NCBI GenBank assembly: GCA_951406725.2
Contig: OX597825.1
Location: forward strand, 79,360,001 to 79,424,000
DNA from: Octopus vulgaris
Taxonomy: Eukaryota
Length of the DNA: 64,000 nucleotides
Direction of reading: 5' to 3'
Part shown: positions 835 through 55,655 of the stretch, piece by piece
Layout: every line of letters starts with the position of its first letter
Position numbering within the stretch: position 1 is the stretch's first letter
Notes under the pieces: model-generated
The model's database searches: none
Seen by the model: the letters and a program-made list of their open reading frames with translations, nothing else
Told to the model about the DNA's origin: nothing
Program-made: the position numbers and the translations under genes

Positions 835-875
<41 letters not shown>

Positions 876-877
<2 letters not shown>

Positions 878-1075
878 AGATGTACTCGCATAGCAAGTAA
901 TTTGATCTGAGATCGTGTGCTGAAACGAAAACAATTGCAGCGTGGGAGGTGTTTATAAGCCATTTAAGAAACACACAAAAGCCGTTCGATTCACTCCAAC
1001 ATTTAAGTTTAATTTGTCAAAATATTTTCGTCGCTAAAATCCGCGACCTGTTCACTGACAAAGTCCGTGCTGCAT
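876..1075 (-). mobile_element. ~200-bp non-autonomous repeat (family F) in a (TA)n tract, carrying a hammerhead motif
   Basis: The same sequence recurs at 5243-5420 and, inverted, at 5985-6130. It is flanked by (TA)n on both sides. Confidence 0.8.
1013..1062 (-). ncRNA. Minimal type I hammerhead ribozyme motif, G3:C8 variant
   Basis: Minus strand reads UUUGUCA-GUGAACA-G-GUCGC-ggauuuua-GCGAC-GAAA-AUAU-UU-UGACAAA: 7-bp stem I, 5-bp stem II, GAAA, palindromic loop III. Confidence 0.7.
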
Positions 1076-1093
1076 CACATATATATATATGTA

Positions 1094-1134
<41 letters not shown>

Positions 1135-4485: not shown

Positions 4486-5013
4486 TGCGAAATCATGTCT
4501 GGCAGTAAGGCTATATTACATTTACTTTGAAACAGGTGAAGGTTGGTAGCAGGGAGGGCATCCAGCCATTGAATATTTCCTTCAGTAAACTCCATCTGAT
4601 CCCTGTAAGCATGGAAAGGTGGACATTGAAACAGAAAGGATACATTTGGGGACCAGTTGATTGATTCAGTCGATTATTCCACAACTGGGAATGTAAACAT
4701 GCTAGAACAAATACCATATGACATTCTGTGGCTGTAATCCTCATCATCATCATTTAGCATCCACCTTTTCATACTTGCATGGGTCAAATGCAATTTGTTG
4801 AGGCAGATTTTCTACCACTGGTTGCTCTCCCTGTTGTCAATACTCTTCCTGTCTCTGCCAATTCATCTCTTATAGATTTTAAAAGGATACCCAGGCTAAT
4901 GCTTGCTTACACAGACAATTTTTGCTAGCTTCCTTGGGTTTCGGATTTTACCTCTCTCTCCCTCTCCCCCCTCTCTCTTTATATATACATATATATATAT
5001 ATATGTATGTATA

Positions 5014-5232
5014 TGTAACGGGAAGGTTTACGAAAATAAACAAAAGACGAAGGCAGGTTTACGAAAATTAACAAAAGGCAAAGGCAGGTGGAGTACAAAC
5101 CAACAATTGTATGGCGCTCAGGAATAGAAATAAAACAAGTCTTTTACGTTTCGAGCTTACGCTCTTCGACAGAAAGATACACAGAAAAGAAACAAGGAGA
5201 GAAAAAAATGTGTGTAGGAGCTAATGGTCCAA
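5014..5232 (-). mobile_element. Short Penelope-like/retrozyme-type repeat carrying a hammerhead motif
   Basis: Follows a (TA)n tract. Shares CGCTCAGGAA...TTTTACGTTTCGAG...GCTCTTCG with 55453-55655. Confidence 0.65.
5140..5177 (-). ncRNA. Minimal type I hammerhead motif with an A6U core change
   Basis: Minus strand reads UCUUU-CUGUCGA-A-GAGC-guaa-GCUC-GAAA-CG-UA-AAAGA. Confidence 0.7.
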
Positions 5233-5242
5233 TGTATATTAT

Positions 5243-5420
5243 GGAGATGTACTTGCATAGCAAGTGACTTGATCTGAGATTGTGTGCTGAAACAAAAGCA
5301 ATTGCAGCATGGAAGATGTTTGTAAGCCATTTAAAAACTGTTAGTTTCACTTCAACATTTAAATTTAGTTTGTCAAAATATTTTTGTCACTTTAAAACTG
5401 CAACCTGTTCACTGACAAAA
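5243..5420 (-). mobile_element. Family F copy with decayed HHR (5369-5419)
   Basis: Aligns by eye to 876-1075. It keeps stem I and GUGAACA, but GAAA has become AAAA. Confidence 0.8.
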
Positions 5421-5574
5421 CTTATATACACACGCAGGCACGTCTACACACATATGTAAATACTCACATACATATGTACATATATTCATACATAAATATA
5501 TACAGACATACATGTGTATATGCGTATATGCATGCATACACATGTACACATATGCATACATACACACATACATA

Positions 5575-5895: not shown

Positions 5896-5984
5896 CATAT
5901 GCATACATACACACATACATACATACATACTTACATGCATACATACATATACATCATGAACTAACTGTTACTTTCTCAGAAGCA

Positions 5985-6130
5985 GCACAAAGTTTTGTCA
6001 GTGAATAGGTCACGGTTTCAAAATAAAAAAAATATATCGACACAAATTAAATTTAAATGTTGAAGTGAAACTAATGCTTTTTGTGTGTTTTTAAATGGCT
6101 TACAAAACATCTTCCATGCTGCAATTGTTT
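5985..6130 (+). mobile_element. Family F copy, inverted and more decayed
   Basis: TTTGTCAGTGAATAGGTCAC...ATGTTGAAGTGAA...CATGCTGCAATTGTTT is the reverse complement of family F. Confidence 0.7.
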
Positions 6131-55452: not shown

Positions 55453-55655
55453 GTTAATCCAAACATGAAAACACAAAGAGAAAACACAACAACGCGAGGA
55501 CGTGGAACAAATATAGTATTATTGGACGCTCAGGAAGGAAGGGAAGAAGGAGGGTTTTACGTTTCGAGTGGAGCTCTTCGTCAGAAACATAGGAGAAGGA
55601 AAGATCAAGAGAAGGGAAGACGGAGGAAAAAAAATCTCCCAATGGTACACACGCA
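55453..55655 (-). mobile_element. Short Penelope-like/retrozyme-type repeat with an intact-core hammerhead
   Basis: Lies between TA and CA microsatellites. Related to 5014-5232. Confidence 0.7.
55554..55588 (-). ncRNA. Minimal type I hammerhead motif, canonical core
   Basis: Minus strand reads GUUU-CUGACGA-A-GAG-cucca-CUC-GAAA-CG-UA-AAAC, with a GUA cleavage triplet. Confidence 0.75.

Follow-up and report, generated by a model that had tools for sequence, protein, structure and literature searches.

Minimal type I hammerheads are known from the pseudo-LTRs (pLTRs) of metazoan Penelope-like elements (PLEs) (Cervera and de la Pena 2014, PMC4209133). In the Poseidon element PAc of Anolis the hammerhead depends on the protein of the element, and templates are predominantly uncut RNA (Frangieh et al. 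2024, PMC11167929). Natural hammerheads in which the core pair 3:8 is U3:A8 have been published (PMC3088659, PMC4209133). A G:C swap at the same pair restores activity in laboratory mutants (PMC9901934, PMC11167929), which bears out what an earlier sequence-only reading of the DNA treated here had said of G3:C8 double mutants, and G3-C8 performs better without C17 (PMC3884650, data not shown in that paper). Within the partial coverage of the literature, G3:C8 appears in print only as an engineered rescue (PMC11167929, PMC9901934, PMC3884650); no natural G3:C8 hammerhead was found in the literature searched, which included PMC6765202, PMC6155905 and 10.64898/2026.07.22.740005 and was itself a partial coverage, with the key survey of PLE variants lying outside it.

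The window analysed here is a stretch of 64,000 nucleotides from Octopus vulgaris. It contains a repeat that is the pLTR of a young PLE. The hammerhead homologue in this repeat has a fixed G3:C8 pair and probably cleaves itself slowly, with the help of dimer formation or protein, close to where the mRNA starts. The features of the window are as follows.

840..875, no strand: (TA)n target on the 3' side; most genomic copies are flanked alike
876..1078, minus strand: solo pLTR copy of a young PLE with leader, hammerhead and ORF start, assigned from its identity to genomic matches
876..963, minus strand: opening 29 codons of the element ORF, with the start codon at 963; the frame runs on into the ORF in contig L035
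1013..1062, minus strand: type I minimal hammerhead homologue; stems I and II, GAAA, helix III and UUU read off the sequence
1019..1020, minus strand: predicted cleavage site after U17 by hammerhead numbering; the likely start lies 58 nt upstream of it and the AUG 56 nt downstream
1049..1055, minus strand: swapped core strand G3-U-G-A-A-C8-A9, with G3 at 1055 and C8 at 1050
1076..1078, minus strand: 5' end of the window copy at the likely transcription start; window position 1077 equals L035 4720, at the pile-up of 5' ends
1079..1131, no strand: (AT)n target on the 5' side
5232..5423, minus strand: an older copy in decay; G3 and C8 are still there, G12 is gone and stem II is damaged
5979..6130, plus strand: an older, tail-less copy in decay; G3 is still there, C8 has become U, and neither GAAA nor stem I survives

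The hammerhead motif and its repeat family

The sequence-only reading had placed on the minus strand at 1013-1062 a motif with a 7-bp stem I, GUGAACA, a GC-rich stem II, GAAA, AUAU and UUU. All of this is present as described; what the description lacked is a single unpaired G at 1048, between A9 and stem II. Stem I is formed by UUUGUCA (1062-1056) and UGACAAA (1019-1013), and stem II, of 5 bp, by GUCGC (1047-1043) and GCGAC (1034-1030). The remaining core letters are U4-G5-A6-A7 at 1054-1051 and A9 at 1049, followed further on by GAAA (1029-1026), AUAU (1025-1022), U16.1 (1021) and U17 (1020), all on the minus strand; helix III, AAUAUU, is palindromic, and the cleavage triplet is UUU. Features shared with PLE minimal type I hammerheads are stems I and II, the Watson-Crick pair 3:8, GAAA, A15.1-U16.1, the NUH triplet, G10.1-C11.1, the unpaired base after position 9, the palindromic helix III and a pLTR position sense to the ORF. 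Of the consensus C3-U-G-A-N-G8-A9, the letters U4, G5, A6 and A9 are retained, while positions 3 and 8 depart from it as G3 and C8, and on account of this departure the octopus motif is best classed as a variant of the PLE minimal hammerhead.

Both stems I and II were recovered by RNAfold (z = -3.05; 2 of 200 shuffles equally stable). With a descriptor in which 3:8 may be any Watson-Crick pair and position 9 any base, the motif at 1013..1062 was the sole site in the window; on 40 shuffled windows the descriptor gave 6 hits, one of them equally strong, so that a match of this strength is expected by chance in about one of 40 windows. The Rfam scan of the motif returned nothing at the gathering threshold. 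The helix III duplex is weak (-0.2 kcal/mol), and in the predicted monomer fold G3 pairs with U17 with a probability of 0.67.

The window copy at 876..1078 is identical, over 201-203 nt, to all 40 scored genomic matches, which were drawn from at least 1664 first-look candidates; from this identity it follows that the repeat family is young, and the earlier description of a mobile high-copy family is upheld. Most genomic copies sit in (TA)n, and many carry an inverted, shorter second arm. The two older copies in the window are 81% and 78% identical to the repeat, and the older copy used as a query gave 3701 candidates. At these copies the letters GUGAACA (5369-5419) and GUGAAUA (5994) had been read correctly, with the proviso that both copies are decayed and have lost GAAA. 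The repeat family is also present in contigs from organisms coded A-D, with no variant letter listed at G3 or C8, and in contigs guessed to be RNA, in which strand, start and cut are unreadable.

In the aligned copies that cover these positions, G3 is found in 97 of 99 and C8 in 98 of 100, from a set of 114 alignments at 80 loci that includes both arms of inverted pairs and whose copies are not fully independent. The swap is thus a trait of the family, as had been proposed. Subfamily-level changes were counted at 0 of 35 constrained against 11 of 144 other non-CpG sites, a difference that is not significant (P = 0.08); four of the 11 lie in loop 2.

Some further observations concern hammerhead-like sequence in the same genome. 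In two copies (L207:1455-1470 and L302) the AUAU of helix III is expanded into a (TA)n run, which suggests that a microsatellite can grow out of the palindrome or that the palindrome can be a target of the element itself. At window positions 5135-5174 and 55550-55590, both on the minus strand, there are remains of a different repeat family that bears hammerhead-like motifs, the core reading canonical CUGACGA at 55590 and CGAAGAG at 5174. U3:A8 hammerhead motifs occur in other repeat families as well (L246, L057).

The parent element and its relatives

In the contig L035 the repeat occurs twice in tandem, 4.26 kb apart, flanking an RT-EN frame with breaks, and an inverted truncated copy is present in addition; in L068:2471-5545 (minus strand) there is an uninterrupted frame of 1025 amino acids with RT motifs, a CX3CxxC linker and CCHH. 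The attached PLE ORF that the sequence-only reading had proposed to look for is thereby found. Some copies extend upstream through a microsatellite-rich UTR of about 1 kb into a frame ending in a GIY-YIG domain. The marks of an EN+ PLE are all seen: a single ORF, RT with a DKG-type motif and motifs A, B' and C, C-terminal GIY-YIG with CCHH, partial tandem pLTRs, an inverted 5'-truncated copy and a one-sided tail. The arrangement of pLTR, inverted copy and tail is that described for PLEs (PMC8557442, PMC3846280). The Pfam GIY-YIG match of the L068 frame is above the cut-off. Pfam RVT_1 gave no match to the family F protein, as the octopus family is designated here, but matched the relative P0107 and scored P0087 below the cut-off; a PDB sequence search with the ORF and a Pfam search on two partial frames gave no match either. 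Within the 64-kb window no PLE protein remnant was found. Two frames elsewhere appear to be of other kinds: the 690-amino acid frame L033:2677-4746 (minus strand) resembles a fragment of a Helitron-type Rep/helicase, and the 323-amino acid frame L031:3334-4302 (plus strand) resembles a Tc1 transposase.

Within the repeat itself lie the hammerhead, 56 nt of leader and 29 codons from the start of the ORF. The idea that the family is built on a hammerhead has to be given up in that form, for the repeat is the pLTR of an autonomous PLE and most copies stem from uncut RNA. First-look candidates in the genome numbered at least 380 for the endonuclease query, against at least 1664 for the repeat. The last 55-60 nt or so of 876..963 form the tail that is missing from inverted arms: a main arm runs to L035 4921-4926, about 90 nt into the ORF, and an inverted arm stops at 4861-4868, about 30 nt into it. 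These ends fit the two internal priming sites of PMC11167929.

The linker of the L068 frame, C-X3-C-xx-C at residue 896, agrees with the CX2-5CxxC pattern. The RT motifs A and B' are 128 amino acids apart in family F, longer than the short spacing of Neptune and Nematis, and the element is for this reason filed under neither. Among 91 proteins with both motifs the spacing is 123-140 amino acids in 86 and 58-61 in five distant PLE hits. An insertion of about 70 amino acids at the telomerase IFD position, together with a Nematis-like short linker, is common to the C-terminal-EN PLEs L068, L108 and P0001-P0106. These insertion-bearing elements possibly represent an unnamed PLE group, set apart from Neptune and Nematis by the published descriptions of those clades; a literature search on such an RT insertion in C-terminal-EN PLEs found only PMC8557442.

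The sister family of F, S2, itself young, is joined to it with an SH-aLRT of 100 in a quick tree; it shares 58% protein identity over the RT region and has intact frames of 1312 amino acids. Its motif (L108:2329-2385, plus strand) lies at the same place before the AUG and has C3:G8. With respect to F it carries compensatory changes in all three helices, namely C-G for U-A in stem I, A-U for G-C in stem II and G-C for A-U in helix III, and identity between the two families is 28/45 in the motif against 20/55 and 23/54 in the flanks. Among the nine closest metagenome loci, four have the motif (U3:A8 in L127 and L128, C3:G8 in L126 and L130), and five have no recognisable one, some of them through a contig end. 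The 3:8 pair is accordingly Watson-Crick in all six identifiable motifs, being G:C in F, C:G in S2, L126 and L130, and U:A in L127 and L128, and all six have the spacing, the unpaired G, G10.1-C11.1 and a self-complementary helix III in common. A Watson-Crick 3:8 pair kept in five related families and the compensatory changes towards S2 together confirm that the fold is a real hammerhead homologue. That the pair, the unpaired G and G10.1-C11.1 stay constant speaks for common descent of the motifs and for selection acting on the pair. U17 is present in F, S2, L126 and L127, and the presence of this base in the lineage beforehand is the likely reason why the swap could be tolerated: G3 would only wobble with U17, so that no G3-C17 trap would form.

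Other core positions vary. C9 is found in S2 with C3:G8 (L108:2329-2385, plus strand) and in L127 with U3:A8 (L127:2490-2545, plus strand), both non-consensus cores, and U15.1-A16.1 replaces A-U in L126 (L126:4965-5030, plus strand), a variant that is weakly active according to PMC3088659. In view of these changes, which are expected to slow catalysis, and of the five loci without a motif, selection on catalysis may be relaxed in the group. Just upstream of the start codon a GUGUUU-like word was noticed in F (L035:4820-4834), S2 (L108:2445-2460) and L127 (2562-2575). The S2 ORF (L108:2472-6398, plus strand) is rich in asparagine at about residues 200-500, with 27-32 N per 100 amino acids, which resembles the N-rich inserts of rotifer Penelope ORFs (PMC3846280).

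Copy ends, insertion junctions and the question of cleavage

For the 5' ends, 30 young copies were sampled with a query downstream of the predicted cut (30 of 40 scored, from 608 candidates). The start falls 55-59 nt upstream of the cut in about 15 of them and between -53 and -10 in 10, and five extend through the entire UTR; none of the 30 has its 5' end at or after the predicted cut, from which it follows that most templates are uncut. The window copy begins G-T-GATGC, with a leading G that is not in the element and is possibly cap-derived. In the Octopus genome loci examined, 16 of 17 copies beginning AGAUGC are preceded by a G absent from the element, and after removal of six copies in which this G might be templated, 10 of 11 still are (P about 1e-6 at a G share of 0.2). 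A further 19 copies begin one base later, 18 of them after T, often at ambiguous inversion junctions. Untemplated G has been connected with reverse transcription through the mRNA cap (PMC9341517), and on the strength of this link and of the pile-up the short copies likely represent complete cDNAs that reach the capped 5' end of uncut mRNA. A search sampling the 5' ends of S2, intended as a control, gave no matches.

When the whole genome was searched with a pattern for TA-flanked starts around the cut, 51 matches came up, and their flanks were then checked. Thirteen junctions lie at the cut (three related copies being counted as one), three at 1-6 nt upstream and 10 at +6 to +8; two upstream candidates were dropped as internal AT expansions, one T-run was set aside, and the count leaves out rows that had filler or lay at other offsets. 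Per junction register this amounts to 13/4 at the cut against 3/7 upstream (P = 3e-4, or 9e-4 with the T-run row). Such a step at the cut is as expected from a minority of cut templates, and stalling in stem I could look similar. An earlier test against one control position, and weak for that reason, pointed in the same direction: 118 places had a non-T before the 3' product against 170 at the +5 control, and among the fetched places (L253 left out) clean breakpoints numbered 14 of 30 at the cut against 3 of 30 at the control, or 17 against 6 when microhomology is included.

These junctions would also be produced if the octopus motif descended from a hammerhead that no longer cuts, with the fold kept as a protein-binding, promoter-proximal or translation element and the reverse transcriptase stalling in stem I. 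This is the strongest of the alternatives, and is considered rather unlikely. In its favour, most templates are uncut, junction density at the cut equals that at +6 to +8 (13/4 against 10/3), relatives carry additional core changes, and cleavage is dispensable for insertion in vitro (PMC11167929); the lack of copies starting at the cut among the 30, the G3-U17 pairing, the weak helix III and the cores of the relatives all weigh against activity. Against it speaks that 3:8 makes a tertiary contact in the active fold and has stayed Watson-Crick across three different pairs, and that junctions drop just upstream of the cut although the best TA-repeat microhomology lies in that very stretch.

A second alternative, somewhat less likely again, would make the 5' boundary of the short copies a 3' splice site, the templates being spliced from a very short exon 1 to an exon 2 opened by the hammerhead, and it would be compatible with an active ribozyme. 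The boundary is preceded by branch-point-, pyrimidine-tract- and AG-like sequence, similar AG ends stand just before stem I in L126, L127 and L130, and an intron of the Drosophila virilis PLE ends at helix I (PMC4209133). However, independent copies share no upstream exon sequence but only the single G, and no spliced joint is listed in the contigs examined, the donor side lying outside the stretch. That the repeat is a non-coding retrozyme or the end of a DNA transposon with an incidental hammerhead match is very improbable and largely refuted by L035 and L068, for although most copies are short and non-coding and many stand in inverted pairs, the repeat holds the start of the ORF and is continuous with its own RT-EN ORF, the inverted arms are unequal and tail-less as in PLEs, neither tandem short monomers nor terminal inverted repeats were seen, and a chance match is expected in no more than about one of 40 windows. 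A DNA transposon or MITE was rejected, the 203-nt unit having unlike ends and the inverted arms being unequal duplications of the whole unit, and so was a non-LTR retrozyme of non-coding tandem monomers without ORF, on the ground of the continuity with the RT-EN ORF.

If the repeat is the pLTR of a young PLE with a slowly self-cleaving motif, Pol II would start about 16 nt upstream of stem I, and the RNA would be capped. The element protein would nick (TA)n DNA and prime reverse transcription within the start of the ORF, at about +90, or at +30 for the inverted arm. Synthesis continued as far as the capped 5' end would give the solo copies of about 205 nt, and read-through RNA from tandem copies would give the long ones. 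Most templates would remain uncut. A minority would be cut after U17, whereby the cap would be removed 56 nt ahead of the AUG, a capped piece of 58 nt freed and a 56-nt leader left. Slow cleavage would be aided by dimerisation through AAUAUU or by the element protein, as for PAc. The cut would either limit expression or permit cap-independent translation, which has been reported for viral 5' UTR hammerheads (PMC13725137).

Meaning and comparison with known systems

A wild-type G3:C8 core in a spreading element shows that it is the 3:8 pair, and not the identity of G8, that nature keeps, and surveys based on CUGANGA miss whole families. The surprise is limited, as the swap could be foretold from the laboratory rescue mutants. 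Since insertion junctions reveal where the likely start, the cut, the AUG and the priming sites lie, and frames that look intact are at hand, the role of the PLE hammerhead becomes directly testable. In a wider scenario, offered as speculation and unlikely as a whole, the unnamed C-terminal-EN group with the IFD-sized RT insertion would have explored active cores (G3:C8, U3:A8, C9, U15.1-A16.1), and the cut would be a decapping switch acting upon the encounter of an RNA dimer or protein, sorting an uncut pool that is copied from a cut pool that is destroyed or translated cap-free.

Short, abundant hammerhead copies related to PLE pLTRs are likewise found in the animal non-LTR retrozymes (PMC7229834, 10.64898/2026.07.22.740005), from which the octopus family differs in having its own ORF and in not being a tandem non-coding monomer. 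With the C-terminal EN+ PLEs Neptune and Nematis (PMC8557442) the element shares the C-terminal GIY-YIG with CCHH, the upstream CX2-5CxxC and (TA)n targets, and with Nematis (rows of Fig. S2 therein) the short spacing after CxxC. It differs from both in the insertion of about 70 amino acids at the telomerase IFD position, where insertions are described in the same source for N-terminal EN clades and sporadically for Coprina.

The metazoan pLTR hammerheads of PMC4209133 correspond to the octopus motif in their location on the pLTR sense strand, type I topology, the unpaired base before G10.1-C11.1, the palindromic helix III and the common U17, and they are expected to act as dimers with low activity. 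The unpaired base has the consensus H there and is G here, and the alignment rows seen in that source contain only C3:G8 or U3:A8. PAc (PMC11167929) is alike in a pLTR that reaches into the ORF start, in two internal priming sites that give rise to the tail, in AT-rich targets and in uncut RNA as the main template. In PAc, however, C3G/G8C was engineered and rescues activity in part, and the cut falls inside the ORF, whereas in the octopus element the swap is wild type and the predicted cut lies 56 nt before the AUG.
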